Of a stretch of 64,000 bases of DNA, positions 5,090-61,800 are shown in pieces. A model generated the notes under the pieces. It was not told the origin of the DNA. It saw nothing but the letters and a program-made list of their open reading frames with translations, and did not search any database. This stretch comes from Bilabrum cf. latius. Taxonomy: Eukaryota. Each line of letters starts with the position of its first letter. The first letter of the stretch is position 1. Location: the NCBI GenBank assembly GCA_965178125.1, contig OZ237735.1, positions 2,542,001 to 2,606,000 on the forward strand, in the 5' to 3' direction. Both the position numbers and the translations under genes were made by a program.

Positions 5090-5438
5090 GCTTTACTACA
5101 GCCAGGAAATATGATTCTGAACTGCCAGGAACATGGAGGTTCGCCACGGAATCTGGAACGTTCGCTGGAATTTTTACTGCCGCGGTTTGCCCTTTTCCTG
5201 ACGCCCACAGGCTGCCTTATTGCAGCTGTCGAGCATTAACTGGTGAATCCGAATCCGCAATGTATGTCTTGCCTTATTTCATTGTTACAACATAGCCAAC
5301 CTCGCTGGTGGGGGTGAGCCGTGGGCGAATAGCGCGACCACTCGCCGCTGCCAGCGTTGCGACCAAGTGGCGCTCACTTGAATCCGCAGGCTCTGCTCAC
5401 CTTCAGCAACTGCATCTCAAAAGCCGCTAGTTTGCAAC

Positions 5439-5921: not shown

Positions 5922-6282
5922 TGGAGGGGTCCTAGAGATTCTACTACCCTTGCCTAGCTTGAAGTGCTGGCGCTGTTTTTGCACTGCGCAATCATTTAGG
6001 CAGCTCTCTTGTCCTGCGCAGCGTCGAGGCGTCGTTGGACCTGGTGTCTGAGCACCCAGCCAGTGGCCCGGGGTGGCAGCCACGGGCAGCGCTGGCAACG
6101 CTGGAAGGCCCAACATGCTGAGCATCGGATGCTGGCAGTATTGCGCTTATGATCAGGCGTCTAGGAACTATCCAATCAGCTGTCACTGGCATTGATTTTA
6201 TAGCGTGTATTTAAAAGAAATCATATTTTATGGTTTCACGGTTCCAATACTTACTGTTCAAGGTCTCCACGTCTCTCTCAGA

Positions 6283-28800: not shown

Positions 28801-31800
28801 CAATTTATTGTCCTGGTATCAAATGCATCAGTGTTATAGCAAGCTCAGAATGACAGTATTTGGGGCTATTCGCTCAACGATACTGAAGTGGCGTCTGCGC
28901 AGCTTGAGCTGCACGGCACGCCACGAGTCGTGCTCAAGCAACCAAAGCTCGCTGTGGTCGTCGGTAGACATCAGCCCATCTCTGTCAACCCGACGGCATC
29001 CCTGTGCTGGGGGTCAATCGGATCCGCAGAGGCGGCAGAAAGCGTGTCTGCTGGGTTTACCTGGTAGTTTGTGGGTTCCGTTCATCACGTTGGTGCGAGT
29101 GCAACGCCATCGGACATGCTGGAGGCAGTCAATGCGTCTCTTCACGAGTTGCATTCAGATAAATCAAGCGCTGGCTCCACGACACAGCAGTACGCTGGGT
29201 TTGACAGAGATTCGGCGAGGTTGGCGTTGCTTTCAAAGTATGGTCAGCACACTGATGCGCACTACGTCAACCTGACCGATCTTGCGCTGCAACCTGACTC
29301 ACAGGCAACTAGTCCTTTAGAAGGCGTCAAGTTATATGTGCCCCGAAGTGCTTTGCGGCCAAATCATGGATACATCTTTGCTGTTCGGTGTGAAGTATGG
29401 TTTCGCGGATCCAGTGGAACCTTTGAGCGTATGCTCATTGGATCTCATCACCCTGTGTACGCCCCGGGGCAGTCTCCGGGGCACACGTTTGGTCTTGTGG
29501 CCATCGGTGTTCGCAGAACTGCGATAGCGGTGCCAGTAGATGGTGGTGATCGAACTGTCTCTCCAGATAGTAGCCTCGTGATCCGAGCAGGGCGACAGGA
29601 TCAGGCCGTAGACTAGGACTATCAGAGCAGTCAAACCGCAGTCGATCGAGGCTACGACGGAACAGAATACGATGCCGTGCAGGTGTTCCAGTGGACTTGT
29701 TCTGCATGGCTGGGAAACTCTGCATCCGATTGTAGCCAGCTTGTTCCGGGTGCAGGACAACCCACAACTGAACGTGAGTCCAGCCTGTCGTCGGCCCAGC
29801 TGGCTCCACTGGCTGGCGGCAGACTCATGCTCAATCTATCAGTCCATGCAGGATTGGTCGCTAGAGAAGCTTCCAGTGCAGCCGGACAACGGAGACTTTA
29901 GCAGCTTGCAGAGCCTGCATCGATGAATTTCACCGCGGCATCGCTCTCGGTCAGCCACTCTACTGCGACCGTCTCCGTGGCCACTCCCGGAGCGCCTGCT
30001 GTGGAGATCATGACAGATCGAACAAAGCACGCGAGGACTGCAGCCGAAGGGGGTGCGGTTATTGTGTCTGCTTCATCAAGGCTGGTCTTGGATGCCATAA
30101 TCAATAACGAAGCCACCATCGGTGCGAGCGTGGACGATAACTCTGATGTACTGTGGCACCAAACCGCGGGTCCGGTTCTCGCCGGTGTCCCGCAAGGTCC
30201 TCAGCGAGACTACCTAGACCTAGCACCCGGCGCGTCAGATCCGATCTTGACAACCTCATCTTCTTCTTCGTTTGTGCTGAGATCAGGAGTGCTGGTCCCC
30301 GGCGAGACGTATTGGTTTGCTGTCTCAATCAGCACCAACGCAGGCGCTGGTACTGCATCTGGAGCGGCCTCACAGGCAGTGGTACGCATCTTTGTCAACT
30401 TGCCACCTACTCCTAGGTCCATTAGCTTTGCTTTGCTTGCATCAGAAGTGTCTAGCTTTGCGCCAACTGACTCGGTTGACGGGGGCTCGACACGGCAGGT
30501 GCCACGGGTTCTTATTGACACCGTGACAGTAAGCACCCCTCCGTGGAGTGATGACTCAGAGCACCTCCCTATTCTGTACTCTATGTACCTAGACACACTC
30601 GGGGAGCTGAGTGACCTCAATTCCAGCAGCATATCGCTGGATGAGGGGCAGGTGGAGGCTGTCATCAACAGACCAGGTGTAGTCGCGCTGCGGGGACCCG
30701 GCATCGAGCCTTCGTTCCAGACTGTAATTCCGAAGGGACCCACCGAGAATGGCGGGCCGCAAGTGACGATGACCATGATCATAATCGGGACTGACGCGCT
30801 AGGGGCACAAGGTATTGCTGCCGCTCGGTTTTAGATTCGTCCGGCTCTAACCGCCGAGGAAGCTGCGAACCCGTCATTTGTGGAAGGCGCTGCGTCCTCG
30901 TTGTTTGATCGCGCCATGCAAAGCGCAGCAACTGCGAATCCAGAGCAAGCTGTCGCACTGATAGGGTCTTCTGCAGGATTGCTGAACGAGATCCCGCCTG
31001 GAAATTCAATCGACGACTCAGACGGCGCGCTGAGGCGCTCTCTGTTCCGTGAACGACTCTTGGGATTGATGGGAAATGTCGCCCTTACGCTGGAAGTGAG
31101 CGGGCCGAACATCCAGCTTGCATCCGCATCAACGCAAGAAGTGCTATCGCAGCCAGAGTCTGTATCAAATGGCTCAATAAATCTGGCTTTGGATGCGACA
31201 GAAGTACTGCTTCGCAGACGCGGTGACACGGAAACAAGCGAGGACTCACTAGGCGATGGGCCTGGAAGGTCCGTACTGGACATGTTTCGGGTCGCATCGA
31301 ATGCAGGGCTACACCTTACGAACGGAAGTGGGATTCTAGGTTCAGAGCGAGTGTCGAATCAGTCGCAGATGCTGACTCGCGCTCTGCTAGAAGGGGCGGT
31401 GCCTGGAGAAGCGCAGAGAGTAATCTAGTCGGGAACTCAGAATCGATCTGTAGGGCTGCGGTTAGTGGCCGGGCGCATCGATACAGGTAGTGCAATGCTA
31501 GAATCAGGCACAGCAGCTCAAGGCGGTGGCGGGGTCTTGGCTGCGGTTGGTTTGTCGGGGACTACCGTGGACGGAGTCTAGCAGGCCGCAGCTGCGTACT
31601 GTGGTGGCTCTGTGCCGGCTCTTAACCTGACTGCCGCAGAGCTGCGCGCTGCGAGGGCAGCTGCATAGGACCCCGAGACCTTCGGTGTGGCTCTTGTTGC
31701 TGCTGCTGGTACGGGTCCCTCCAGGCAGCGCCTTATGCAGCAAGCAGTCTTACTGGATGAAGGCGTTGATGCAACTGTGATGAAGTGGGATGTCCCGTCC

Positions 31801-34800
31801 AGTGACACAGAAGGGGGATCACCCCATCCGCTAGACAACGCCGGTATCGAGCCAGTATTTGATATCAACGGGAATGTGGTACGCACTTCGGACACCTCCG
31901 ACCTACCTATCAGTGTACCGCCCGGTGTGCAGGTGAACCGCACATCCGAGGTCAGTGTCGAGCAGCTAGAGGGCTCGATTGGCTCAACTGTGACCGTGGA
32001 ACTAGTCCGAGCAGGCAGTTCCGAGCCAGTAAATTTTGCCACCAATCTGCAAGCATGTGTATTTGTGCCCCATCCTCAGGAGGATGCGGCGTGGTTTGAC
32101 CAAGACATCGAGATCGATGAAGTTCCCGTGATCCCATTGGTGCCAGGCGATACGCAGCGGCAGGTTGGAGTGTCGCTCGAATATGACCCGGTGGCTGCAT
32201 TGCAGCTCCCGCACTCATGCGCAGACACGCTGAGCGCAAATTAGACAGAGCAATAGTTTGAAGCGAGCCAAGTTCTGCAGGCAACGGCGTGCATCTTCTG
32301 GGATGAGACTACCCAGACGTGGTCGGCAGACGGATGCGAAGCAGTGGCAGTCCTCGGTACAGGCGTGGTCTGCAGGTGCAGCCATCTCACTAATTTTGCC
32401 GCTCGTGTGGAGCTCCTGCGCTCGTCCAATCGAGAAGTGTTTGCAGTCGGGGCCCAGAGGCGCACTGCACAAGACGTGCGGGACAACCCCGAGGTGTTCA
32501 TTGCGGTGGGGGCCATGACACTCGGCATCATCATTGCTGCAGTGTGCTCCGTTTGGATAGAGAATCGCGACAGAATCCGCTTCAGCCGAAGACTCGTCAA
32601 GGACCCGGAGGTTGGTATCGTAAGGGATATGGTTCGGCTGGAGGGCAGCGGCGAAGTCTTGCACACTGCACTGAGAGATTGGGAATCTGGTATGCGCAAT
32701 AGTGAACTGGGACTTACCGAGGAGAAAGCCCTGGAAAAGAAACTGGATAGAGCTCTCACTGCCACCATCGACGCGCTTCAAGCGGTTGGTGGCTTGGCTG
32801 GAGTACAGCCGTCTGCAGCAGGGAGCAGAAAGAAGTCAAAGGCCAGGTCCAGCTTTCCCGAATTCGAGAGCAAGCTGCCAGGGACGCGCGTGTTCTTAGA
32901 GCAGGAATATTTGGCAGTGCTAGCGCAGAGGAACGAGCGCGATTGCAGCGACAGCGCTTGTTCCGGGTGCTATGCAGCATGCTGCAGCACCATGCCAGCC
33001 GAGGACGTGAAAAGCACGGGCAACAGTTCAGACACGCAGGCCTCCCAGAACCTTTCATCGACCGGCAGCAGCTTGCAAGCCATGTACAGAGGGATAGTTC
33101 GAGAATCGAATCACAGCTCTGGTGAGCTGGACCAGTCGAGCCGTGGCGCCGGCAAGGGCGTCCGCCGCAAGGCTGGGTCAGCGAAGCGAGGACCTCCGTA
33201 GGCTCATACGGAGAGTAGAGGGGCTGAGTACCTGTCGCAGCTTAACCCATGCCAGCGGGCATGGGTCATGAAGTGTGACATTCTCAAGCTGTGGTGTTCG
33301 CGGCTGCCGTTTGAGCACGTCTTCCTGGCAGCATTTCTTCGGTTTGACTACCAGCAAGATAGGACCATGCGACTGGGCTAGCTGCTTGCCGTCGTCTTCA
33401 TCGGGATGTTCACCACTGCTTTCTTCTACAGCGTCTCCGGTGGCACTGCAGCTGGGATAGATGCGGATTGCGACGGAATTGACGACTTTGCAGAGCCCGC
33501 GCTCTGGGAACAGCTCGTCTTTGCTGCTGCCTCATCAGTGCTATAGCTACCGGCGTCAGTTCTTCTGACAGTACTCTTTGGTATGGCTGGCAACGCATGT
33601 TTCATGTGGAGGTACTTTCCAATTTGGCGCGAGCTGGAGCTGCGCAAGGTGGCAGAGGTCCACCTGGGCTCCAAGGTGGGTGACCTGAGGAGGAAGCTGC
33701 AGGTTATGCAGACATCGCTGGCAAACTGGCTTCAGACCACCACCGAGCACGTCAGCCCCGATGATTTTGATCAGCTTCGCATGGTTTGCGAGCTGCTGGG
33801 TGACGATCGCGCCGAAGAGATAGTGGACGAAGTGCTTGAAGGGCGGAGGGCGATTGCATCCGGCCGTTTCGCAGAACAAGTGGATGAAGCCAAACGATTC
33901 GGAGCCGGTGCCGCAGATCAAGTCGTTGCAGATGCTCCGCCGAGCCACTTGACCGTGTCACGATAGTCCTCTATGGCCGACATGCGATCCCGGGTGCACG
34001 AAACGAGCGTTCGACTTAGGCTGCTGCGAGCAATCAGGGACTACGGAGATTTTCTGGCTTCATCCTACAGGTCTGAGCTGAGCTGTATGGGATTTATCTG
34101 GTCTTGGCGCTGCGGCGAACTCTCGTGCTGCCGAAGCTAGCGGTACCAGGAAGTGGAAGCATCGCACCATCGCGTCATTGGCATCTTTGCTGCCCAGCTT
34201 GCTGACATGAAGGCATCCAGGGGGGGCAACGTTGGAGTGCTGGCGAAAAAGTACGCCAATGCTGCGCACTCTGCTTTGATCGAGAGCGCCGACAGCAAGC
34301 GCACGGATTTGGCGAAGCTGTTTATGCCTGTCTTGGTGCTTGCGGACGTGTTCAACCCGGCAGCACTGGGCTGGACCAAGGCACCTTCGACTTGCCGTGC
34401 CTGCTGCCCTTGTTTCGTGTGGTGCTACAACCGCATGCCGAGCCAGGAACCGCTCTTCTTGGTACAACAGCTCGCTGCTGACGGCAGACCCTACGGTTGC
34501 TGTCACACCAGGCGCGACTCTCGAGCAGATCCAACGCAGGACTGGATTGCAGCGGTGCGGGCCGATGAAGAAGAGCACCCGCCAATCAAGCTGCAGCACG
34601 AGGCTGACGCAAGCGCAGAAATTGAGCTGCAGACACAATTGCAGGGTGCTGATGTGCACCGCGCGGCAGTCTCGGCGGTGGCGGACTCGGACGGCCGCCA
34701 CTCCGGTGACATGCACATCGGACCGGCCGCAGTTCCGATGGTGGTTCCGTCTTCCAAGATCCGGGAAGGTGTGGCCGAGCATAAGAGTTGTGCATGGTGC

Positions 34801-36867
34801 GAGTGCTGCTCCTGCGGACCACTGGATAGCCTGCGGTGCACGTGCGTGGTCGTGCGACATGCTACTCGAGGCACGCAAGATGTCGCAGCCGACCAGACGA
34901 AATCCCGAGTGGACGGCTTGATGGTCGAGATCCAGGCTCAGGGACGCTTCAGCGAGCTGTTGGGCGATGAAATCAGTCCGTACATCGCCCGAGCCTCTAG
35001 CCGCCGCAGCGGTCAAACCCCTGGAAGCAACATGTACGCAGCCTCCAGCATGGGGGAACAAGCAGCCGTTTCGTCCAAGCCGCCCGATAGAGTGGCACAA
35101 CGGCTGCACGCCATTTACAATCAACATGTGGATGACGCCAGGCGCAAGCACCAGCCCGAGGCATCCCGGCAACTCGGCCGACAACACGATCCTCACGTTG
35201 ACACAGAACATGGTTCCTTAGTTCATGCCTCCATCGGCGGCCAGGCATACGAAATTAATGCATCCTCTTCTCTCGACGACGGCGTGCATGCCCACGACTC
35301 GGACTCGGACTCGGACTCGGACTCGGACTCGGACTCGGACTTGGAGGGCGATGCGGAAGCGCTCGACGACATGCTGCGGAGGGTAGTGCCAGGTTTCGAC
35401 GGACTCACCGACGGAGAGAAGAACGACTACCGTGGGGCTTACACGATCCTGCTCGCGGCACGCCCAGGGGCCAGTGAGGAAACCACCCTTGAAGGAGTCT
35501 AGGCAGGTGCATCCAAGAGAGGCGCCAGGCCAAGCATGGCAGCGGCCCGACGGTCCGTGCGCAGCCTGCTGGTGGACACTCTGGAGGACGAGGGCATGAG
35601 GGCCGTCATTCGGGGGACGCTGCTCAGCGAGGAGGGAGCTCACACGAAGGCCTGCGTGTACTCCGTCGCGTCCTTTGTGCTGCTGGCCGCAGTCCTTGCG
35701 TTCGTGCTCTGGTTCATCCTGGCGTTCGGGCTAACTAGGGGACGGGCCGTCATCTCGTCGTTCATGGTAACATTCTGGACGTCACAGGCCACCACGCTGA
35801 TCATCACCGAACCTTTGGTTATCTTGCTGGCGCTGGCGTGGGCGCTGACCTTTGGCCCGACGATGAACAAGTTCTTGAACTGGGTGCCGTGCTGCGGGGC
35901 CAAGGACGAGGCTGCCACATTCTCCGGCTCCAGGGTGCTCTCGGGGCGCGTGGAGAACGTGGCAATGCTGCATGCGGTTGGGGCGACTGCGGGGCTGGCT
36001 GGAAGCAATAGCCTACTTGTGTTTTCTAGCACTGCTGCCCTGTCGGCTGCTCTCGCGTCTGATTTTGCTACGTACGGACACGAGAAGGAGAACCGGCGAG
36101 CCAATGGCACCGCTCGTGCCTCTGCCTCCGGAGACGGTAGCGACAGCGGATCCGACGCAGACGCGGCAGCAGTTGGTATTGAGGCTTTGTCCGTGTCGGG
36201 TGGTGGTGAGGACGAGCAAGAGCTCTAGGAGCAGCGGCGCGCTCTGGCCAAACGGCAGCGAATGACCGGCGCGCGCATGGAGCGGCGGCTGCACGACCTG
36301 CTGACGAGAGAGTTTGCGCGGTTTAGATTCCATTCCGCGGTTAAGACGTTGAAGGGTTGCACTGCTCGCATCCGCTCCATCGCCGCAGAGCAGGCTAGAG
36401 ATGGCGAGGACCCGGCAGCAGTGGCAGCCTCGGCGGAGAGCCCCGCAGGGAGTGCCATGCAGGCCAGGAGCAAGCAAAGGGCCAGGGGCAGGCGCGGGAG
36501 TGTTGCAGTCGTGGGTCGGGCGCGGGCGTCACTGCAAGAGGTTCCAGGCTTCGGCGCGACTGAACGCCCGGCGTCGCCTTCCTCCGACCCTGGCGCGACG
36601 TGCGCTGCGGATGCCGACAAGGAGCCGCAGCCGCAGCCCGGCGCGGGTGTCGAGGCGGATGTGGCCACGGTGGGTGCCACATTATCCCTGTAGCAGTTTG
36701 AGCGCGATGCGGGGTTGAGTTCTGAGCGCCGTGCGGCCAGGGCCAAGAAGAGGTTCGCTCGAGCGAGGAAGGTCGAGACGCTCGAAGCTGCTCTTGATGC
36801 TGCGATCGAGAAGCAACGCTCTCGACTGCGTCGTGAGGTGCAAGGAGCTCTTGCAGACGGCTCATAA
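22825..36867 (+). CDS. Giant polycystin-1-like cell-surface receptor: signal peptide, 3x FG-GAP (integrin-alpha-like) propeller modules with Ser/Thr/Pro linkers, REJ-like region, GAIN/GPS, about 5 TM helices (~4,200 aa)
   Basis: Exon 1 22825-22902 = MLCSGLGARILHCLLLLRFGVLSGAQ. FG-GAP/Ca-binding blades GDLDGNGVLDVAIGA, GDVDQDGVPDLLVG, GDVDEDGVHDLAVAAP, DVDGDGTRDVVVG. Last exon 28402-36867 in one frame with about 19 TAGs. GPS ACIFWDETTQTWSADGC...CRCSHLTNFA (~32287-32400). PKD1-like TM motifs HVFLAAFLRFD...RTMRL...TAFFY and FGLTRG...FWTSQ...ITEPL. Ends at TAA. Confidence 0.8.
23219..27880 (+). repeat. Intragenic tandem triplication, unit ~1,673-1,675 bp (about 2.8 copies), containing exons and introns
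   Basis: Nearly identical 272-aa ORFs at 23336, 25009 and 26684 (offsets 1673 and 1675). The introns with TG microsatellites are copied too; only scattered substitutions differ. Confidence 0.97.
35296..35340 (+). repeat. (GACTCG)7 coding microsatellite encoding a DS dipeptide run
   Basis: Seen directly; translates as DSDSDSDSDSDSDSD. Confidence 0.95.
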
Positions 36868-37068
36868 CCATATTCTGGTAAGTAAAAACATCTGAAATCA
36901 CGTCTTCGTTCACGTATTCGCGCATGCACCTTGCGATGCAAATGAATCCGCAGTGGTCGCAAACGCCTGACCGGATCCGTTGCAACTTGGTACTTTTACT
37001 TGCTGTTAGGTCCTGCAACGGCCGAGCGAGCGGTGGTTGTCACTTACTGTGCTGTACTTTGTTCTGCA

Positions 37069-39378
37069 ATGGGCTGCGGTGCGAGCTCATCAATCATTCC
37101 AGACAGCAAGAAAAGGCAACAACGCAGACAGGAAAGCGCGTCCCGCATTCGTGCTCATATCCCATCGAGCTAGGCCGGTGCCTTCGCCGCTAGATTTGAA
37201 ATGGGGCGAATCCTCGGTAAAGGTGGATTTGCCGAGGTTCGCGAGGTCACTGAAATCAAGAGCGGCAAGCGGTTTGCCGTCAAAGTGCTCTCGAAGCTTG
37301 CAGCCATAGAGAGATCTCCCGACCCAAACGTGTCGTTAATCAACCTGCAAAGGACACATGCTGCATCCAGCGAAACTGGCAGCTCCCAAGGCGGTAGGAG
37401 AGGAGGATATGGAATGTCTGAACGCGACTTGGAGCTCATTGCGAATGAGGTTGGACTGCTCAAGGCACTCGCTGGCTCGCGGTACGTGGTCCGGCTTCAC
37501 GATGTAGTAGCTGATTTAGGCAATATATACTTGGTAATGGAGCTCTGCAGGGGCGGGGAACTCATGAAAGTGATCAGCTAGAGCAGGCGCATGACGGAAC
37601 GGGCGGCTGCATCGATATTCCGACAAATAGCCCGTGCTGTTGCCGACTGCCACGCTCTTAATATAGCACACAGAGACATCAAGCTGGAGAATGTCCTGAT
37701 CGCATAGCCTGTGGACCCCTCGTTCTTTCGTGCGTCAGGGGACGAAGTCGAGCGGCTTTGTCCAGACCTGCGGGTTTGCGACTTCGGGCTGGCCGTACGA
37801 ACCAGGCCCGACCGGCCCATGCGAGCAATGGTAGGCAGCGCATACTACACGGCGCCTGAGATAGTCAACCGAGAGGGATACTCCCTTGCTGTTGATGTCT
37901 GGTCGCTTGGAGCGGCCTTGTTCTTGCTGCTCTCTGGTCGCGTGCCCTTCGGCCAAGGCGCGAAGAAGAAGGCACAAGTGTATGAGGCCATAAGAAAAGA
38001 ACCCCTTCGGCTTACAGGTTCTGCATGGGAGCGCGTTTCGGCATCTGCCAAGGAGCTGGTCGCCGGCATGCTCGAGCGGGAGCCGAGCAAGCGATACACG
38101 ATCGAGCAAGTGCTCGAGCACCCCTGGCTGCAGGTCGGAACCGCGACCAGCGCAAGCGACGGCGAGCTGGACACTGGGGTGCTGCAGCGCCTGCAGAAAT
38201 TTGATGCGCGCAACCGGTTTCAGCGCAAGGCCCTCAGGCTTGTGGCCTCGAGCCTCTCCGCGGAGGACGTGCAGCGGCTCCGCAAGACGTTCGTCGAAAT
38301 GGACTCGGACGGGTCCGGCAGCGTCTCGTACGCAGAGCTTAGCGCTGCGCTGCGCCAAGCGGGGCTGCCGGACGAGGACATCGGCAAGCTGGCCGAGGCC
38401 TTGGACGAGGACGGTGACGGTCAGATTTCGTACGACGAGTTCATGGCCGTGGCGGCGCAAGAGCAGGTGAGCTTAGGTCAATCGGGTGCAATGCATTGCA
38501 GCTCGGTGCAATGCGTGCTTGCGCGGGTGTCCCTCCTGTCACCATCAGTCCAACGCACACCGTGTTCTGGCTCGTGTTGTCGCTGCTCGCTGCGATGCTG
38601 CGGACCGCAATGCTGGCAGTGCAATGCACGAGCTGCATGCCACACCACACCCCGAGCCTGCATTATTCTAATCCCATCACTATCATTCGCTTCCCTCTCT
38701 ATGATGCCGATGCCGCAGATGATCAACCACCAGAACAACATCTGGTGGGCCTTCTGCCAGTACGACGTGAACGGCGATGGCGTGCTGGGGATCGACGAGC
38801 TGAGGGAGGTGCTCAAGGGGGAGCCTGAGGAGAAGGTGCAGGCGTATCTCCACGAGGTGGACAGGGACGGGGACGGGAGGGTCAGCTACGTGGAGTTCTT
38901 GAAGATGCTGCTGCCGGGGGACGTCAAGTATCGGTTGAGCGCGGCATCGGGCGCGGAGGCGGTCGATCTGGAGTCGCCAGATTCGGGAGGCGCTTCTAGT
39001 GGCAGAGAATCGGGGGGGTCTGCCAGCGGGTCTGGTGGGGCCAGCCCGGGCGGTGCTGCTGGTGCTGCTGGTGCTGCTGGTGCGAGTGCAGGGGGCGAGG
39101 ACGAGATACCCGGGGGCTCTGCGCTGGCGGCGATGCTCCGTGCGCAGGCCAGTAGCGGGGGGGTGGCGAAGGGTGGAGCCGAGGTGGGGGGCAGCCTGAG
39201 GGTGCGCCGTAGCAGGAGTGGAAGCGGCATTGGCAGCGAGGCGGAGAGGGCGAGGAAGGGCGGGGGCGAGCTGCGGTCGCCAGAGGCTGGCAGTAATGAC
39301 GACCCTACGATGAGCGTGCCAGCCAGGGAGCTATCGTAGAGCGATATTGCCAGGCATGGCGGCACGGGTGGGTCTTGA
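37069..39378 (+). CDS. Calcium-dependent protein kinase (CDPK) with an N-terminal acylation motif and 4 EF-hands
   Basis: Starts MGCGASS. Kinase motifs LGKGGF, FAVK, HRDIKLEN, DFG, GSAYYTAPE, DVWSLG; four EF-hand loops (DSDGSGSVSYAE, DEDGDGQISYDE, DVNGDGVLGIDE, DRDGDGRVSYVE). Intron 38467-38718. TAGs at 37171, 37579, 37705 (the last two inside the catalytic domain) and 39337; TGA at 39376. Confidence 0.93.
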
Positions 39379-40131: not shown

Positions 40132-42516
40132 TCACCCAAGCCTCGGTCTCTTCGCGCCCGGTGCAGACGGCAGCTTTCCCACCTCTTCCCCCGCCTCCCT
40201 CTTCCTCTTCATGATGGCCTCGATCTGCACCACCTGCCGGTCCAGCTGCCGCTCCCGCTTCTTCGCCTGCTTTGCCTCTTCCTTTGCCCGTGCCACTGCA
40301 CCCCCTTGGCTACCGCTGCCTTCGCCAGCAGCACCGGCAGCAGCGCTCTTCCCGCCGCCCTTCTCCTCGTCGCTGTCGTAGGCCTCTCCCAGCCCCGCGC
40401 CCAGGTCCCCCTCCTCCTCGGCGACACCGAGGTCCTCGCCCACGCCCACGGACGACAGACCCTTGAGGCGAAAGGCTGCGCCACCCGTCGCGACCCCCGC
40501 ACTCGTCACACGGGTACCGTCTTCACCCCCATCCTCCGTGTCGATCAGGTCCAGCTGGGCCTCCAGGCCGCCCTCCGGCCCGGCGAACCACCCGCGGCGC
40601 CGCGCTGCCACTCCTGCTGCCGAAGATGGGGGCACAGCCGCAGCTGTGGATGCACTGGATGGTCCCGACGAGGCCATGGGTTGCCCCCCGGCAGGTTGCG
40701 ACTCGAAGCCAGCTGTGTCCCCGTCAGCAGCGGCCTGCGCCTTGCTCTGGCTTCGCCTTGCTGCCTCCTCCAGCACGGCCGAAGTATCGTAGTCGCCTGC
40801 ATCTGCAAATATGTCTTCATCATCATCATCATCGCCATCATCCTCGTCTTTGGACTCTACTGCGGCTGCCGCGGAAGAGCCGCCTGACATTGGCGTCCTC
40901 CCAGCAGCCGATGGTCTGCCTGCTGCACCTGTGACGTGCTTCCCGGTCGCCGCATCGGCATCGAGTTCCAGAGACAGGCCCCGAGACACACCGCCGGGAC
41001 CAACCGGGGTCTTCTCTCCCTTGTTCCTCAAGATTCCCCGAGCAGGTGCTCGCTACGCAGACGCAGACGCAGCTGTCCACCCACTGGCACCGGCCATGTC
41101 GGCAGGCTCAAACATGGCGGCAGCCGATGCGCCTGCCACAGCCGCACGGCCGATGGCACCCTCCTTCCCTGTTTCCCGCTCTCCAAATACGACAGCCCGC
41201 TCCTCTCCGAAGCCCACCGCCCCCACCACCCCGGAGCCCACACCTGGGGACCGACTTCTCTCCGCTGTATCGGCTCGAGCTTGTTCCCTAGCTTGTTCCC
41301 TGGCCCGCTTGCGTCTCCTTCGCAGCCTCCTCAGCCCCTCTTCGCCCTGCCCCGCCGCCTCGCACGTTTCCTTGAGCAGCAGTCTCAGTCCCTCGGGCAG
41401 GCGGCACCCGATGAGGTCGTCCGTGGAGGGGCAGTCCTCGGCCGCGCGACGGGTCATCCGGGGGAGGGCAGCGAGGGCTGCCTGCATGGAGGCCCCGTGC
41501 AGGATGCGCGCCTCTGCCTCTGCCTCTGCTCCTGCTCCTGCATTCCCCGGGGCACCAGCAGCTCTAGAAGCAGGGGCGCCGCTGCTGGCAGCCTCCCGCT
41601 TGGCAGCGGACCTGCCAGCCTTGTATGCGGCGGCGGCCGCGCGGCCTGCCTGGGATGGCGAGGTCAGCTTGAAGGAGTAGGAGGTGCGCCACGGCAAGAA
41701 GTGCAGCTGGGAGCCTCCGGTCGGTGCCCCCGAGCTGCTCATCGCACTGCGGTGCAGGGCTAGGTCTCGGCGCTGCTGCACGGCTGCCAGGAGTGACGGC
41801 TGCGAGAGTTCCGAAGGCACCTCCGGCGAGACAGATCGCAGCTCGCTGCAGTATGCAGACAAGAGAGCAGGGTCCTAAAGTGGAGGCACGACGGGCAGGT
41901 GGACAGCGGCGGCGAGGCTCTCCATGTCAGTGCGATCCTGGTCGTCCAGGGCCGCGGCCGACCCTGGCAGCCTGGGCACAAGGTTCACGTAGCGCCTCGC
42001 TGAGATGCCCCCAGTCGGTAGCAAAGCATCGCTCGACTGCAACAAGTGCAAAAGAGAGGCAGCTATATGGCTCTTTGGTGCCAGGCGTTGGGGAGGGGGA
42101 CGCCGGGCGGCCTTCTCCTGCTCTAATGCGGACGACTTCGATCGCTCATGTGCCAGCTGTTGCCTGGTCTGCTCAACTAGGCCAAAATCGATGCCAGATG
42201 CAATGGCAGCCTCCGTTTGGGACCCTTGCTGCATCGCAGACAGCTACAGCGGCTTCTACTCGTCGTTCCCTTCGTTGGGCTCGTCTCCCTGTTCAGCTTT
42301 TCGCCTTTCAGCCGCCCGGTCCCTATAGTTTGATGCTGCAGAGTCTACGGTCCGGCTTGACGCATGGCGCCGCTGCCTTGCTTGTTTCTTTGGGGCCTTC
42401 TTCGCCACTGGCTACGGGGCTGCTTTGGGCTGCTTGGATTTCTTGCCACCCATGCGGCCTTCGGCTGGAACAGATGCCAGCATACTGCGGAAAAATTCCT
42501 AATCATGCCCACTCAT
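40132..42516 (-). CDS. IK: RED/IK-like spliceosomal protein
   Basis: One frame from ATG 42516 with about 6 TAGs to TGA 40132. Motifs YRDRAAERR, GIDFGLV, DEDIFADAGDYD and a C-terminal LDRQVVQIEAIM helix match RED N- and C-terminal regions. Confidence 0.75.
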
Positions 42517-42662
42517 TGTACCACGATCAGTTAGTGTAGAGTCGGTTGACGAAAATTGCATGCGAATTCAGCAATGCGTCCGCTCGTCACGGCATTCAGA
42601 TCAGATTCCTTTGCCTGGATTGCGAGCTGCTAGCTGCAGTTTTTTTCGATCAACGTTACCGA

Positions 42663-45099
42663 TCAGTCTTCCATCGCAGCCTAATCAGCCGCCCCGCCGG
42701 CGGCAGCCCCGCCTTCCCCGCTGCCCTCCGCAGACGCCTCCGCGCCCGCCTCCTCCGCTGCGCTGGCCTCTGCCGCCGCTGCCTTCTCCTTGGCCTTGGC
42801 AGCGCGCCGCGCCGCCGCCTGGGCCTGCTTTGCCAGCTTCTTTGCCGCCTCTTCCTCCCTGCGCCGTGCGGCCGCCAGCATGACCTCTTTGTTGATGAGG
42901 TGAGTCGTCCGCTCCACCTTGCCTAGCAGCGTGCTTAGGTCAGCGCTCCAGTCGGACAGCCGCTCCGCAGCGGTCCTCGGGGCAGCAAATGTCACCACAC
43001 CCGAGGGCCGGTCGATCCGGGCGTGCAAGTCACCGCCGCTCACCATGGCACCAAGCTCGGCCTCGAGGGGCTCCACTGGCACGCCGAGCAGCTCGGACGC
43101 CCGCAGGAGACCGACCCGCTGGTAGTACTTTGCCAGCACCCTCAGGTTGTGCTGGCACACCCTCTTCTTCAGCAATCGCCACAGCGTGGGGCCCTCTGTC
43201 GTCGTGGCAGCACCCCCTGTCCAGCCCGCCGCGTCCCCCAGAGGCTCGTGCTCCTCCTTTCCAGCGTCGTCGTCATCCGTCTCCATCGCCTTGCTTTCGC
43301 CTGCGCCGGCACCGGCACCGGCGCCAGAGGATGCCGCAGTGGATCTGCCGCCACCCGCCGCACGCACAGCTGCATCATCTGGAGCGGGCACCAGCATGGG
43401 ATGCGCGGACAGGACGGGCACCTTTTCGTCGTACTCCGGTCCCCCGGGGATCGTGGCATCAGTCTCCTCGGGCTCCTCCTCCTCCTCCTCCTCCCCGTCC
43501 TTCTTCTCCTCTTCAGCCGCTCCCTTCTTCCCTTTGCCCTTGGCAGCTGCGCCCTTGCCGCCCTCCGTTGCATCGCCATCGTCATCGTCTCCATCGTCCT
43601 CCATGGCTGCCGCGCCACCAGCGGCGGCACCTGCAGGGGCCGGGGGCTCCGGCTTGGCATAGTCGTTGGACGAGAAGCTGTCGGCCGCCTTGCCCGCAGC
43701 CTCCGAATCGAAATCGGACGACTCTCCGTCCAGGGGCCACGCGATCAGCTCGCTCCCCGTGAGCTGCCTCAGCAGGGAGTGGTACCTGCCCAGCCGCTTG
43801 AGCCGCTTGGAGCGGAGCAGCGAGTGCATGAGCACCTCTGCCTCCTCATCGTAGGGACTCAGGGCAGCGGAGAGGGCTGCCCTGGCCATGGCATCTCTCC
43901 ACCTGACGGGGTCGTTCTTCACAGCGGGCACGGCGAGGATGGCGGTGTAGTCCTGTGCCATCTCGAGGGTCTGCTTCCTGTGCCTGTGCAGGCGGATGAG
44001 CAGGTCCCGGTGCCTCAGCTGCAGGTCGGCAAGCTCGGGGCTGCCGATGATCTTGTCGCTGATCTTGTTCGCGATGATGCCCATCCTCACGTAGTCGCGC
44101 TGCCGGTGCGTCAGACGCACCTGCTCCAAGATAAAGTCGGCCTTCTCTCGCGCCGCCATGCTGCCGTACGTCTCCACCGAGACCTCTTGCAGGGTGCTGG
44201 AGGCCTCGTCGAGGCGGCCGTCTGCCTCCAGTACCTCTGCAAGGGATTTCGTGAGGCGTGCGCGCTCCACCTCGACGAACATCCTGCCCTCTGTGACCGA
44301 GCGCAAGGCGGTGATGAGATCCACGCGCACCTGCTTGGGCGCGAGCGGGGTGTTCGTTTTCTCGCGGGCTTCCATGTCTTGGCATACCGTCCAGCACCTC
44401 TATGTCATGTCTGAAATGGCCTGCGGTCCAAATGGGGTGAGAAGCAGCTCTGGGGCGCTCGCAATGCAAGCAACTACATTTGAAGCAATACTGCGCTACG
44501 CAACAGCTCGGTGTACGCAGCAGCTTTGGTGCGATCCGCTGCAGGTTGCCTCACCTGCTTGAGCTAGCCTCGTTTCTTTGCCAAAAGCTGGACGGTGGCA
44601 GTCAATTCTTTGTAGTCGTTGGCTGCAATGCATGCATCCAGCAGCGCCACGCAAACCCGAGCCGTGGCAAAGCTGTCTCCTGCCTGCGATCGCGACAAGT
44701 CACAGTGCATCCATGATATCAAATGCATAGTTATCAAATCGTGGCACCGGTGTAATACGCATCATGCGCGTCTGGCATGCCCTCCATCCCAAAAGGCCAC
44801 TCACTTGCCTAGTTTTCTTTTCAAGCACCTGTCCAGCTTCCAATGCATCAGCAAGCTTACCAGACTGCAACGAGGTGAGATTTTATCCATCTTATCAAGT
44901 ATAGAGGCAGTGCTGCAAAGCATATTACAGAGCGGTGGAGCAAACGGACGATCCAATGATGCTTGCTCACCCTGGCATCTTGCATAATGGTTGGGACGAG
45001 CTCGTCGATCTCAGGAGTGAAATCGTGCTTCTTCTTGTTCGATTCGCTTTCGTCGGGGAATCCCATTGAGGACTCGGGCTCTTTGCTTTCGGACGCCAT
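42663..45099 (-). CDS. PSMD12: 26S proteasome lid subunit Rpn5/PSMD12
   Basis: Four exons. Motifs LEKKTRQ, LAKKRG-TAG-LKQ, VTEGRMFVEVERARLT, LQEVSVETYGSM, FILEQVRL, HNLRVLAKYY, ARIDRPSGVVTF. Reads through TAG 42681 to TGA 42663-42665. Confidence 0.95.
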
Positions 45100-45280
45100 G
45101 GTTCTTGACAATCCAAGTGGGCTGTTCGATGCCGTCGATTGGTATCCAAGTGCACCTTACAAAAGAACCCCCAAGATTTTTTTGTTAATGTCGGGCCACG
45201 AGCATGTGATGGATAGCAAATGACCAATAGCAGCAAGTGAATTATTTGTTGGTTTAGAACACGCAAGCTAGACTGGTGCC

Positions 45281-47431
45281 TCATTTCCCACCACGATTCA
45301 GAGTCGCTCCCTTGCCTTCGAACCCGGCACGTCGACCGCCTGACGGGAGGCCACCCTGCGAGCAGTTGGAGCGAGGCAGATGCAGGATGCACGAGGTATA
45401 GCACATGCAGCAGCAGCGCAAAGCACACCAACAACTCCACAAAAAGCAAACTCCCTTCAAGCCACACGCACAGCGCCTGCCGCACACAAAACCCCGAGCT
45501 ACCAGAGATGCACCAAGCGGCAAGCGCGCAAGTACGAACAGATATGCCGTCCATGGTTTTTCCCAAGTGCAACCGGCCACTAGGACCCGCACAGAGAGCT
45601 GGAATATGAACGGTTGCCCGCTGTCCGTGCCAATCTATGCACGCGAACGCACTGGCGCACCTGCCCGCGGAAGGGCAAGCACTGGCGACGCGCGATAGTG
45701 TGTGGCAGCGGTGGAGCGGAGCACGCCCCCTCTCGAAAGAGGAGGCAGCTACACGCGCCGGAGCATCGATCTTCGACCTTTCGCTAGTGCTCGAGCCCCC
45801 TGGGGAACAGGGGAGCGCACCGTCTTCTAGACTCGCAGCCGGCTCCGCGCTGAGGCAGTGACGCCCCGCGCTGGAAACCGGTAGGTCGGTAGCTTGCACG
45901 CGCGCGCAACGCGCACGCGCAAGCACAAGCAAGCAAAATGCAAAACGCACAGCACGCAAGTCGGTTGAGCACCAAACAAAACCAGGCTCAACATCGGGGC
46001 AGGAAAACGAAATCGTCACTTCACGTGCGATGATATCTCTCACTTTCTTCGTGCTTCCAGATCCAGGCCGTTTGCCGCCTGCTGCTGATGCACCCGCGGG
46101 GCCTCCTCCCTTCCTGCCACCCTTTCCCTTGGGCGCCTTGATTCCCTTCTTGTGGTCGATCTGGCGCTGGAGGTTGGCTTCTCGTCGCGCCTGCCTGGCG
46201 GCCTGCTGCTGGTCCGAGGTGGCCTTGCGCTCGGCCCACGCCTCCGCGCTCTTCGCCTTGGACCTCTCCTTGCGTTTGAGGGCCTTGGCCAGCAGCTTCG
46301 GGTCGTCCTTGACCTTCTCGCCCGCGGCACGGCGCGCCGCGGCGTCCCACTTCTGGTCGTGCTCCATCTTGGCGCCCTCCTTCGTGCCCTGCAGCTCGGC
46401 CAGTTTGCTCTGGTTGGCCTTGGCGCGCTCCAGCAACGTGCCGAGGTCTCCGGACTTGCGCCTCTGTCGCGCGCGGCGCCTCATCTCGTCGTCGATGCCC
46501 CTCGCGCCGCCGCGCTTGGCAGTGAGCTCGCCAAAATCCAGCGAGCCGAGGTCGGCCGGGTCCGCGCTGGCAGAGGGCTTGGAACGCTTGCTTCCGTCCA
46601 GCCTCAGCTTCTTGGAGGCTGGCTGCGAACTAGTTTCGCCGGCGATTGCCTTGCCGCCGCCGCTGCCGCCAGGGCCGCCGTTGGCCGCCTTGGCGGAAGC
46701 AGCAGACGGCTTGGATGCGCCGCCAGTCGACTTCGCCTGCTTCTTTCGCTACCTGGCTGCTTCAGCGAGCGAAAGCTTGCCGTTGTCGCCCTTCTCTTTC
46801 TTCCTGTTCTTCTTGGAGCCGCCCCGCTTGCTTCGCATCGCCTCAATCTTTGCGCGCAATCGCACCTGGAGCTCAGCGTAAGTCGAGCCGCCGCTCGAGC
46901 GCGAAGACCCAGCCGCACCCTGCTCCCCATCGCCGTCGCTGCCTCCAGTCGAGCTTTTTGCGACTTCAGAATGAGGGCGCTTGCGGCCAATCGAAGACTT
47001 GCCGTCCGATTCGGGCTTTTTTTCGGATGCATCACCAGAGCTCGGCTTCCTCGCCTTCTTCGACTTCGGCTTTCCGATCGCAGCGGAATCCTGCGGGTTG
47101 AGGCAATGGGGGTCAAACAATTGCTGAATCATTAGTTATCGTTGCACAAAGTCAAACTGCATATGAGCGCTGGCACGGCTGTCAAGCAGGCCTGAACGCT
47201 CGTGTACCCTGATCTCACACTTGCATCGCTTGCATCTCTTCGGGAACTTGCAGCGTGGCTGCCTTGCTTTCCATAAACAATAGGATCTACAAGGAACGAA
47301 ACTGCGTCGAAGTACCGGCAATGCTCTACCAAGCGGCTTGCCAGGCGATTGTCCGCCCAGTCGTCGTCCTCAAGCGGACCGTGCGGCAAAACAATGCCGT
47401 CCCGGCCAAAATCGAGGACAGTCTGCTCCAT
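45281..47431 (-). CDS. SURF6: SURF6/Rrp14 nucleolar ribosome-biogenesis protein
   Basis: WDAAARRAAGEKVKDDPKLLAKALKRKERSKAKSAEAWAER is the SURF6 core. The terminal exon 45355-45281 encodes RRAGFEGK and ends in TGA. Introns ~47124-47217 and 45356-46043; TAG at 46749. Confidence 0.88.
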
Positions 47432-53277: not shown

Positions 53278-53396
53278 GTCTTCGTTCATATGTGATTGGA
53301 CCCGCCTGAGCCCTGCCGACCTCAGAAGCTAAGCAATCACCAGTCGGGCCAGTACTAGCGTGGGTGACCAGCTGGGAAGCCCCGATGATGAAGGCC
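53278..53396 (+). rRNA. 5S ribosomal RNA gene (solitary copy)
   Basis: About 119 nt. The 5' GTCTTCGTT pairs with the 3' GATGAAGGC (helix I, with G-U pairs). Internal promoter-like elements GAAGCTAAGC and AGTACTAGCGTGGGTGACC...GGGAA; followed by an oligo-T run. Confidence 0.88.
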
Positions 53397-57643: not shown

Positions 57644-58710
57644 TCACGTATGACCAGACTCATCCAACGAAATGCTAGCGCTCACTGCCGCCCCTCCATC
57701 TGCCTCGTCTTCGACAGCCCCGCGGCTTCCACCCTCGCCCTCGCCCGCCCAGCTTTCCTCCTCTTTCGCCATCGAACGCAGCACCTCCCTTGACCCCAGG
57801 TCAGCGGCGCGGATGGGCTCGGGCATGCGGTGCTTGCAGCAGCGGCGGACCAGCTCCGTAGCAGTGTGGAGAGACACCCTGTGCCCTACTGAAACGAAGA
57901 TCGGGCGTTTACTCCCGCTCTTGCCGGACAGGAGGGCCGCGCACAAGGGTTGCTCGTCCACCGCAGACCGCACCACTAGGCAGTCTTTGGAGACGTCGCT
58001 TGGCTCCTTAGGGACCGGCTCGCCTTCCTTAGCAGAGCTAGGGCCATCTTCTTTTGCTTCACCTGCAGCCGCGGCACACGCAGGTTGTTCGCTCCCGAGC
58101 AAGTGCTTGCTAATCGCGCATGCGACCCCGTCCTTGGTGATGCCATCGACATGCAAGAAACTCTTTCCCACACCGATAGTCCGGACGCCAGCTACCACCC
58201 CAAAGTGGCATGCCAATCCACAACGGCGTGGATGCAATGCACCATTCCCATCAACAAGCCACACGTCTGGTTCTGGCAGCTTCTTTTCCCGCCGAAGCCG
58301 ATCCAGCAGTGACTGTAGCGGTGGCTGCTCCCTGAAAGCCAAGAATCCGGAGATATAGGGCTCTTCCATGCGTATTGTCTGCATTACGGATCCAACAAGT
58401 TCCAGGGAGGGGAAATTCAGCACAGAAAGGCACGCCAATGCGTCGTCCGAGCCCTTCACAAACGAAATGTCAGTTCCGCCGACAAATTTGACGCTGTCAA
58501 TGTCAAAATCTGGGTCATTCGAATACTGAATTCTTTCTCGAATCGTATCCTGGGTTCTGCGGGCGTGTGTGTGGGTTCGGAAGCAAATCATGGAGCTTAA
58601 ATCGGGCAGGCGACACCTGTGTCCAATTGTCAGCCTTCTAACGCCTTCCATTCCGTCTGAACTTTATCGCTAACTTCTTTGTCGGCTACAAGACCTCCAG
58701 AAGCAGCCAT
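57644..58710 (-). CDS. ENDOV: Endonuclease V (inosine-specific nuclease)
   Basis: Exon 1 from ATG 58710 (…VQTEWK), intron ~58557-58642. Motifs VGGTDISF, PYISGFLAFRE, LVDGNGALHPRRCGLACHFG, TIGVGK, PIFVSVGHRVSL, RMPEPIRAAD; TGA stop. Confidence 0.95.
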
Positions 58711-58860
58711 TTCGGCCCTAGCCTAGTAAATTCGATCAACAGTGCCGTTCTTGGCACGACTTGGCACGGCGAGGGCGTGACGATAGCGGCCGAATCCGAT
58801 GATAAATCCCGCGAACATTCTAGGCATGGTGCCCACCATACCATTTTTGTTAAAATCTGA

Positions 58861-61800
58861 ATGATGGCAGGGCCAGTTGACGTCGAGCCGCTACAAGGTG
58901 TTGGCGATGTCCCCGATTCGTTCCCATTGGTGCCACCAGATCGAATCCGCGTGCTCGATACTCCCTTATTAGAGGCGTCCCTTCTATAGCTTCGCCCCAT
59001 GATAACTGGTCTGAGTGCGACATTGACAATCGATGACAACGTGAGCCCTCATCGTTACCCTTGCGCTAAATCCTTGACTACATCGATCATTTGAATGCAA
59101 TGTCATCCATAGCTATGACCTCACAGCCAGGACAGGACGTATCCCACCGTAAATCAGCAGGAGTGTTTGATCCCAGCGCTGATGAAGATGAGGGTGGCAA
59201 GATGGAAGACGAGGAGGCTCCGGACCTAGGCGCTCTGTTGCAGTACGCCAAACGGCAGCTGGAACTGGTGCGCGCCGAACTTGATCGAAGGAATGACCTC
59301 AGGAGACAAGATGCTGCACAGTCGAGAGTAGAAGCTCTACTGCGGCGAGTGGAAAGTGGAAGCAGGCCTTGGGCTGCAAAGGGCGAGGACAGAGACGAAT
59401 CGGATTCGACAAGCACCGCAGGCAGCCCGGCATCGGACGACGACCGGTCATCAGGGCCACCAGATGAAGCCGCACGTGCAGACGACCCGAAATTGCAGCC
59501 AGATTGGTTACGATCTGACGGCAGCGCAGCCGACTCGCATGGCTGCGGTGGCCCAGTGTCTCCCGTTGGGCAGCTGCTCCCCAGGGCGGGAGGAGGGTCT
59601 GGGCCCGTGCGAGGACCACCTCCTGCCCTGAGTGCCGGTGGCAAAGGTGAGCGTGTGCGAGCCCGTGCCTCTTCTTCAGGCCGGGCTGGGTCTAAGAGGC
59701 GGCGGTCGGGCACCACTGCTGGCTCCGGCGGGGGTGCGGATGACGGGCTCATGGGCGGCGGCGTGGCCGTGGTGATGGCTCCGCAGTCTGCTGGCACCTG
59801 GGGAGGTGCTGGCGCCGGGGCAGCGGGTGCTGGGTCTGACCTCGGGCTTGTGGATCCGATTCTGGAGACGATGGAGCGGTCCCTGCAGCAAGCGAAGGCG
59901 GGTCGGAAAGCGAGAGCGAGAGCTGGCACTAGCGCCGGAGCTATGGCCGCCGCTGCCGCTGGCAACGGCAAGGCTAAGGGCAAGGGCAAGAAGGGAGCCG
60001 GGGGCAGTACTGCTGCGAGGAGATCAAAGGCAAGAGGTAGTCGCGGCGGGAGCCGGGGAAACAGCTCAACCTCTGGAGTGAGTGACGCAGACGCTGACGA
60101 GAGCAGCAGGCCGGGTCGGAAGCAAGGCACCTCGAGGCTGGGCAAGCTCATACGATCCAAGAAGAAACGGGAGACGGGCTTCGATGGCGGTGTCGTGCTC
60201 GAGTCAGGCGGGGCCATTCGGGTGCGCAACTGGGGCGATGCGGCAGCCAAGCGGCGCAAGGCCCGCAAAGCCAAGGAGAAGGAGGAAGCTGCGAGGCGGG
60301 CCAAACTGGAAAGGAAATCCTCCAGACCAGGCGACAGGGAGAGGCCGTGGAGGACGGCGCAGTCGAAGGGGGCCGCAGTGGCATCGAAACGAAAGACACC
60401 GAAGGGCAGGAGCGGGTCTTAGACCGATGCAAAGCGCAGAGATAGCAAGGTACAGGACCAAGGGGGCTTACCCGCTAAAGGGTTTAGGCCGGGTTGCCAG
60501 TAGTCCGGAGCAGACGAGGGCGAGGTGGATGCACCGACAGGGATGGAGACTAAGCCCAGGCCTGCGTCACGAGCCGCCTCCAAGTCAGTCGAGCATGCCA
60601 CACCGCCAAGACCAGCGCGTGCAGACCAAGCAACCTAGGAGAACCGCTCGCAGATAGAAGAGGCACAAAAGCGTGGCGCTGGCCAGAGCCCGACTACCGA
60701 GCCGTCACGCCCCGCGCTGGACACAAGTCATGGACCTACTGCAGCTAATGTAGCCGGCGGATCGAGCCGAAAGGTCGACTCCCCTGCATTGATGGAAGCC
60801 ATGCCGCCGATTGATGCTGCGCAGCAGTCGTAGGAAGGCAGCAGTGCAAAGGATTCGCAAGCATCACGGGGCAGTATGGCTCAGTCTCTCGACAAGGCTA
60901 GAGGAGCTAGAGAGGTTGCGAGGAGCGCATCCTAGGAGAGTACAGAGCGTGATCGAGGCACCGGGCCTGCCGCAGGTGACACGCTCACTTTGACGCTGCC
61001 CGATGGAAACACAACCATTCGTCCTCCCTTGCCCCCAGTCGGCGGGTCTTCCTCTGCGCCTCCATCTGCTTGCCATCCGACGGCTACTTCATCACCACGG
61101 CGAGAATAGCAACAAGTGGCTGCGGGCCCTGCAGCTAGTCTAGATTACTCAACGACTGGTACCATCAACACTGCTACAGATGCACCACTAGACGCAGCAC
61201 ATCTACCATCGAGTGAGGCGGCTTAGAGCGGCGCATAGTTAACGCAGCCCGCAGAAAACAACGCAGGCGTGCCTTATGCACGCGTATAGAATGAGATCGG
61301 CGTATCTAGACCGTCTGTCGGCGTGTCAAGCCTGGGTCAAACTACAGAAGACTGTGGTGCCGAAGAAAGCGCAGTCTCTACGGTGGTAGTGCAGGCTGGT
61401 GATGCCGCTGCCAGAAACACGGGCAGCACGACGTGCATCACCGCGAATTCTGCTATCGAGTCGCAGCAAAGATCCATTGAGGCATAGTAGCCGAAGACCA
61501 ACTCATGTGCCGCGGCTGGCCAATCAGAGCCCCTTGTTGGCACCACCCGCCAGCAAATGCCTGCCGGTGGTGGCTCCAGTTCTCCGGGCTCCCCCGGACT
61601 AGCCAGCGACCAAGAGAGGCAGGCAGTCACAGGCTTTAAAGGAAAATCGATGCCAGCGGCAGGCAACGTGCCTGTCACGCGTCCCATGTCACGAGGTGCA
61701 GATCAAGCAAGTCCGGTCAGTTCTGCGGATGAGAGCGGTCCCCCAGTGCAGCCTGCCTTGCCTAACTTACCAGTCGATGCAGTTGGCTCGATTGATGGCA

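Follow-up and report, generated by a model that had tools for sequence, protein, structure and literature searches.

We propose that the eukaryote represented by a 64,000-nucleotide stretch of contig OZ237735.1 (positions 2,542,001 to 2,606,000, Bilabrum cf. latius; hereafter the window) very probably uses a modified nuclear code: UAG serves as a regular codon for glutamine (Gln), and UGA and, most probably, UAA are terminators. We read the code in this way because TAG codons occupy Gln positions in the window's genes while TAA is absent from gene interiors. The gene for Rpn5, a lid subunit of the 26S proteasome known as PSMD12 in human, is our principal subject, and it is compared below with distant orthologues, a close relative, transcript-like contigs and the other long frames of the window.

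The Rpn5/PSMD12 orthologue is located on the minus strand at 42663-45099, where four exons and three GT..AG introns yield a single frame of 691 codons followed by TGA. Exon 1 (44971-45099, 43 codons) begins with an ATG at 45099-45097 and is delimited by the gene model and by transcript-like contigs starting at 45107 and 45106. It is followed by intron 1 (44865-44970, 106 nt), across which the contigs join 44971 to 44864, exon 2 (44805-44864, 20 codons), intron 2 (44684-44804, 121 nt), exon 3 (44555-44683, 43 codons), intron 3 (44421-44554, 134 nt) and exon 4 (42663-44420, 585 codons plus TGA). Introns 2 and 3 are placed by both the gene model and the contigs, in which exon 4 is unbroken. The frame contains three TAG codons: codon 103 in exon 3 (44564-44566) and codon 113 in exon 4 (44400-44402), both of which we read as Gln, and codon 686 (42681-42683), six codons ahead of the TGA stop at codon 692 (42663-42665). 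On the minus strand, the sequence up to the intron 3 donor is CAG CTT TTG GCA AAG AAA CGA GGC TAG CTC AAG CAG, then gtgagg; after the acceptor (...ccgcag) it continues as GCC ATT TCA GAC ATG ACA TAG AGG TGC, which reads AISDMT-TAG-RC. A first-pass annotation had placed the two TAGs at 44564-44566 and 44400-44402 within the minus-strand exons LLAKKRG-TAG-LKQ and AISDMT-TAG-RC, and our rereading of the letters gave the same result.

When exon 4 was searched against the PDB with phmmer, it matched human PSMD12 (E 6.2e-42, residues 116-307) and yeast Rpn5 (8.3e-38); at E <= 0.001 the PDB yielded 5 sequences, each of them PSMD12, Rpn5 or the proteasome chain of 8amz, with no other PCI protein among them. 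Exon 3 alone matched human PSMD12 residues 57-99 (E 6.6e-4). Pfam identified PF22241 (PSMD12-CSN4_N, 2.6e-49, profile positions 58-218 of 218), PF01399 (PCI, 7e-13) and PF18098 (RPN5_C, 1.9e-10) in the exon 4 frame. This frame encodes first the PSMD12/CSN4 N-terminal domain, then ~190 residues of low-complexity insert, and finally the PCI domain and RPN5_C. The same three Pfam domains occur in the same usual order in the solved Rpn5/PSMD12 proteins (human 12bm_W, yeast 3jck_B and 8amz_P), but those are about 440-456 residues long and the window's protein has 691 and carries the ~190-residue insert. The insert (~43100-43700, minus strand, residues ~330-520) is acidic and Ala/Gly-rich and separates the helical repeats from the PCI domain. 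The transcript-like contigs retain it; it is present but poorly conserved in a related protein, P0002, and includes a repeat around 43464-43511 at which the contigs of some runs break.

We compared the gene with L001, a metagenome contig that carries the Rpn5 gene of a relative (89% identical; its four exons are the same, and its introns measure 116, 118 and 92 nt). Exon 1 is 74% identical to L001 1839-1967 and exon 3 is 88% identical to L001 2262-2390. Of the codon changes over 326 aligned codons, 138 are synonymous and 40 non-synonymous, and the differences at codon positions 1, 2 and 3 number 48, 23 and 154. These changes indicate purifying selection on a gene that is also intact and spliced; given the excess of synonymous changes, it is not a pseudogene, in line with the first-pass annotation, which had called this very unlikely for an essential gene.

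To identify the residue, 201 Rpn5-like proteins were fetched and the 154 whose blastp match started at or before residue 95 and ended at or after residue 200 were aligned to the spliced Rpn5 protein, with X at the TAGs (330 query columns). At codon 103, Gln is found in 137 of the 154 proteins (Leu in 9, Ala in 3, Ile in 2 and other residues once each). At codon 113, Gln is again the commonest residue, though at a lower frequency (90/154, or 58%; Arg 17, Lys 14, Thr 7, Glu 7), and codon 113 is a weaker witness than codon 103. Both columns belong to the only six of 330 in which at least 50% of residues are Gln, a coincidence with a chance of ~3e-4 for two random positions. Taking both sites together, Leu is the next residue in rank, and Gln exceeds it ~500-fold in probability. 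The PDB alignments opposite KKRG-TAG-LKQ read skrrsQlkq in human, krrgQlkq in 8amz and kkhgQlk in yeast. Thus the expectation that both TAGs align to Gln, made initially from a human PSMD12 motif that agrees with the PDB alignment, is borne out when orthologues are scored at the two columns, with the weaker signal at codon 113.

The relative provides a second comparison, in which TAG codons of either species are set against the other's codons; pairs were counted in coding frames, with antisense and off-frame open reading frames set aside. Within Rpn5, codon 103 is also TAG in L001, codon 113 is opposite ACC (Thr) and codon 686 is opposite CAG. Around codon 686, protein P0002, apparently from the same species as L001, reads ...DDAQAAMES where the window encodes ...AAD-TAG-AAMED. 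Conversely, L001's own Rpn5 TAGs are opposite a window CAG in exon 2 (44831-44829) and a window CAA at codon 120 in exon 4 (44379-44381), and both genes end in TGA at the corresponding place. The adjacent SURF6 gene (frame 47369-44967, minus strand, with Pfam SURF6 spanning residues 175-409) has an in-frame TAG at codon 207 (46749-46751) that is CAG in L001; L001's SURF6 TAGs are found opposite a window CAG, opposite a window CAC and, in one case, in a gap. A third comparison is offered by a TGA-to-TGA frame of 2861 codons with a GPS motif (28360-36945, plus strand), which contains 19 in-frame TAGs, five of them covered by eight standard-code reading-frame fragments of a relative (86-95% identical). 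That relative has Gln at sites 825, 1729, 2381 and 2778, and three of its fragments stop exactly where the 2861-codon frame has TAG. Across Rpn5, SURF6 and this frame, 9 of 12 informative TAG pairs are with Gln, and no other residue occurs twice. As an internal contrast, TAG in the non-coding frames of the L001 comparison is opposite TAT, TAC, GGG or ACT.

We then considered whether these TAGs are translated at all. Public sequencing runs matching window positions 42600-45200 were collected, and four of them (X1, X3, X6 and X10, from four studies) were compared with the locus; the same sequence is present in the contigs of all four. The X6 and X10 contigs are the unspliced Rpn5 locus. The X1 contig (2112 nt) and the X3 contig (2055 nt), from two studies, skip 134, 121 and 106 bases exactly at the predicted intron borders, with skipped ends of CT..AC on the plus strand, equivalent to GT..AG on the gene strand. 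They cover 42635-45107 and 42691-45106 with 0 differing letters, and their TAG codons are unchanged. Because introns are removed precisely and the contigs are gene-sized, we take X1 and X3 to be complementary DNA (cDNA), in which case the mature Rpn5 mRNA would keep all three UAGs, unedited. Skipping of the TAG codons by transcripts, which the first-pass annotation had named as evidence that would overturn its reading, is not seen in these contigs. A pseudogene, an assembly error, UAG-to-CAG RNA editing or splice skipping would each mean that the TAGs are not translated as such, and we regard all of these as exceedingly improbable: the sequence is identical in four studies, the spliced contigs retain TAG, selection on the gene is strong, codon 103 is TAG in the relative as well, and in-frame TAGs number 110 across 13 long frames. 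The transcript-like contigs start 7-8 nt ahead of the ATG and run on for as few as 28 nt past the TGA, which suggests that the untranslated regions of Rpn5 are very short, or that the contigs are cut.

These 13 long frames, in which TGA is the only stop, together comprise 16,793 codons and reach lengths of 2861, 2055 and 1759 codons. TAG occurs 110 times in frame, compared to 123 and 122 times in the other two frames, and is not avoided in frame; off-frame TGA occurs 239 and 310 times. The same frames contain 512 CAG and 200 CAA codons, so that UAG makes up ~13% of the Gln-type codons. The distribution of TAA differs from that of TAG, which is scattered over the whole length of the frames: TAA occurs 46 and 45 times off-frame but 14 times in frame, never in the interior. 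Eight of the 14 are in the first 78 codons, ahead of likely starts, and six are at or after two putative gene ends. The first of these ends is a TAA at 36865-36867 (plus strand), probably the true stop of the 2861-codon frame, where the relative's fragment P0327 ends exactly and past which third-position GC decreases from 0.62 to 0.28; the second, at ~22638, is followed by T-rich sequence. The behaviour of TAA in the window is that of a stop or of an unused codon, not of a second Gln codon.

A code in which UAA and UAG both encode Gln, with UGA as the sole stop, would account for the same TAGs if TAA were rare merely through the GC-richness of the genome. Excerpts of PMC2984419 describe ulvophytes with this UAR code in which TAG is much commoner than TAA, the window's genes mostly end in TGA, and the relative's codon at the end of the fragment that stops at TAA 36865-36867 could itself be TAG. 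However, GC bias alone would leave ~40 interior TAAs beside the 110 TAGs, if TAA encoded Gln in the CAA:CAG proportion (200:512, with CAA 28% of CAR codons), and all 14 observed TAAs are confined to the flanks of the frames. Over the 16,793 codons, no interior TAA was found, although a table 6 type code would place UAA as well as UAG at Gln positions within genes; the 691 codons of Rpn5 have no TAA, nor does exon 4 of the relative's Rpn5 ahead of its TGA. The drop in third-position GC directly after one candidate stop and the T-rich sequence after the other also weigh against this code. We consider a shared Gln meaning of UAA and UAG unlikely and retain the reading in which UAG alone has changed.

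A second alternative is that UAG is ambiguous, serving as Gln within genes and as a context-dependent stop elsewhere, as Condylostoma or Blastocrithidia do with other codons. A 64-kb window is compatible with such a system, and two TAGs, Rpn5 codon 686 and codon 798 of a kinase gene, are only 6 and 12 codons ahead of TGA. But the relative, with CAG at Rpn5 codon 686, conserves the six residues that follow, and every long frame examined reaches TGA or TAA, so that no gene in the window requires a TAG stop. Ambiguous decoding is accordingly given a very low probability, and a uniform Gln meaning of UAG remains our preferred reading.

Several observations weigh against that reading, in whole or in part. 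At codon 113, the two nearest relatives have Thr (L001) and Arg (P0060, a 72% relative); site 1023 of the 2861-codon frame is Glu in the relative; and the window has CAC (His) opposite one of L001's SURF6 TAGs. Two TAGs in the kinase gene fall in columns where Gln is present in 5 of 105 proteins at one and is outside the eight commonest residues at the other. ARAGORN identified no tRNA gene in the window or in L001-L005, and eRF1 is also not in the window. None of the matching public runs is recorded as RNA; X1 was automatically labelled 'probably DNA', and for X1 and X3 the records give no library type. As for UAA, the support for its role as a terminator consists of two genes and base composition, and the relative's codon opposite TAA 36865-36867, if it is TAG, would not show termination; UAA as a terminator is less certain than UAG as Gln. 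The single pairs opposite Glu, Thr, His and Arg would also be compatible with UAG encoding another residue, such as the Glu, Leu or Ser of other lineages. Compared to these single pairs, Gln is found at 137/154 and 90/154 in the orthologue columns, the next residue is ~500-fold less probable over both sites, and the pairs with close relatives give Gln in 9 of 12; another residue therefore has a negligible probability, and Gln is the assignment that we carry forward.

A change confined to UAG points to a CUA-anticodon tRNA-Gln together with a release factor unable to bind UAG any longer. In the proposed mechanism, the CUA-anticodon tRNA-Gln would read UAG, and eRF1 would have lost its recognition of UAG while keeping that of UAA and UGA. 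Passages in PMC11687900 set out the wobble rules that would make this possible: a tRNA with a CUA anticodon reads UAG and not UAA, and one with a UUA anticodon reads both.

In-frame TAGs elsewhere in the window vary in what they say about the residue. Ricin-type lectins carry (QxW)3 motifs. In the ricin-type lectin part of a GH31 glycosidase gene (6196-9177, plus strand), a TAG at 6988-6990 occupies the Gln slot of such a Q-x-W motif, with QQW at 213, [TAG]IW at 265 and QTW at 325; Pfam Ricin_B_lectin spans residues 181-267. The glycosidase, to which the lectin part is fused N-terminally, is closest in the PDB to alpha-xylosidases (5zn6, E 9.5e-80). Its TAG codons 90 and 473 lie beyond the PDB alignments and are uninformative on the residue. 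The kinase gene (36946-39378, plus strand) encodes an EF-hand kinase of the calcium-dependent protein kinase type. Its TAG codons 212 and 254 were scored in an alignment of 105 of 120 fetched proteins, those with a match spanning the region; the columns are variable and uninformative, and we regard the two kinase-domain TAGs as neutral at best. Database matches to the kinase were a mixture of plant, stramenopile and alveolate proteins, with best identities of <=39%. Its N-terminus, MGCGASS, is what we take to be a possible N-myristoylation signal, and the frame runs through an intron-like stretch located between the pairs of EF-hands.

Three further genes contain stop-type codons that do not bear on the residue. 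Integrin-alpha-like FG-GAP repeat genes are present as three tandem copies at 23207-28108 (plus strand), spaced 1673 and 1675 nt apart; the copies are 99% identical over the compared stretches and share the same two in-frame TAGs in 3/3, which is uninformative. In a gene for a TTLL6/7-like tubulin polyglutamylase (59037-63998, plus strand) that follows a long low-complexity N-terminal region, the TAG lies within an insert and is uninformative. The endonuclease V frame (57644-58735, minus strand, best PDB E 2.8e-44) has three stop-type codons, both TAG and TAA, all upstream of the first Met and equally uninformative.

The window also contains genes for a cysteine dioxygenase type I (16608-17525, plus strand) and a zf-C2HC5 protein (2-5278, minus strand). 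A 5S rRNA gene stands alone at 53278-53396 (plus strand; Rfam RF00001, 81.4 bits), between two long protein-coding frames, and an Rfam scan of the window gave no other match. The SURF6 gene seems to end (45281-46041, minus strand) in TGA after a long last intron, which we read by eye as having a donor AAA/GTGAGA near 46041 and an acceptor ...ctcgcag near 45349. Its short last exon encodes ...RRAGFEGKGATLNRGGK, a motif shared by L001, and ends in TGA ~180 nt before the start of Rpn5. Same-strand genes are ~180-200 nt apart at 42470-42663, 45099-45283 and 36867-37069.

The proposed code has a practical consequence. Gene callers that assume the standard code cut this organism's proteins at every TAG, and the lineage's annotations and protein databases are consequently fragmented. 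Public protein P0001 is the organism's own Rpn5, running from the first Met after TAG codon 113 up to TAG codon 686, and public proteins P0322-P0330 are fragments cut at TAG by standard-code calling, with the 2861-codon frame divided into eight fragments in a relative.

To approach the lineage, a tree of Rpn5 proteins was built by a quick method from 53 of the 58 proteins P0002-P0059 after those of <380 residues were dropped. The window's protein and P0002 are found in a 12-row clade (support 96) of environmental sequences, outside a 30-row clade of fungi plus animals. GC content across the window is 54-72% in 2-kb windows, and introns are 106-134 nt long with GT..AG borders. Because of this GC content, these intron lengths and gene ends that are mostly TGA, the organism is unlikely to be a fornicate or a ciliate. 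Amoeboaphelidium was considered and rejected as the lineage, since its genomes have ~40% GC (PMC10608142, Table 1), compared to 54-72% in the window; the GC content of Nuclearia thermophila is 44%.

A literature search of partial coverage found no description of UAG as Gln in a GC-rich non-ciliate, though the sequencing runs date from 2023-2025 and a description may exist elsewhere. Provided that the lineage is undescribed for it, the window adds a case to a known rare code. More tentatively, we suggest as a possibility, one that we hold to be somewhat less likely than not, that a UAG-only-to-Gln code arose independently in a lineage with no earlier record of it, a GC-rich, compact, mostly TGA-ending eukaryote that is neither ciliate nor fornicate. 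The code would be shared by at least one sister species, at a distance where synonymous sites are saturated and TAG is found at the same and at other Gln positions, and the nearest Rpn5 relatives are environmental only. If this is true, UAG and UAA are decoupled in a small clade of protists, culturable or environmental.

Departures from the standard nuclear code are few, and those giving UAG and UAA different meanings are fewer. Codes in which UAR encodes Gln occur in diplomonads and oxymonads, among other groups. Passages in PMC2984419, PMC5304391 and PMC11687900 describe UAR to Gln as the commonest nuclear variant, present in ciliates, ulvophyte green algae, Hexamita, Streblomastix and Amoeboaphelidium protococcarum. 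As in those codes, a stop here becomes Gln through a C-to-T change from CAG, and UGA stays a stop; the difference is that gene interiors here lack TAA, with which two genes probably end. According to excerpts of PMC5304391 and PMC11687900, UAG and UAA have split meanings in a single fornicate, a single rhizarian, a single green-algal genus and a small number of ciliates. Portions of PMC11687900 report UAG as Leu in the rhizarian exLh and in some phyllopharyngean ciliates, and as Ser in Scotinosphaera, UAA still being a stop in each case. UAG is decoupled from UAA in all of these and in the window, where the residue is Gln.

The closest counterparts are codes in which UAG alone has become Gln. 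Sections of PMC5304391 describe such a code, with UAA and UGA as stops, in the fornicate Iotanema spirale, and sections of PMC11687900 describe it in Hartmannula sinica, Trochilia petrani and Protocruzia tuzeti, all ciliates; its letters are the same as those of 'code 15', according to PMC5304391 and, for phages, PMC9523058. In these codes and in the window, UAG is read as Gln and UAA is no sense codon, and the same logic would apply, with a CUA-anticodon tRNA reading UAG alone. Each new case tests the idea that such a tRNA lets UAG change by itself while UAA stays a stop. The comparison also exposes a difference: Iotanema ends its genes mainly in UAA, as parts of PMC5304391 report, whereas the window's genes end mostly in TGA. 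In a GC-rich, mainly TGA-ending genome such as this one, UAG may therefore have been freed by other forces than in Iotanema, where UAA is the main stop.

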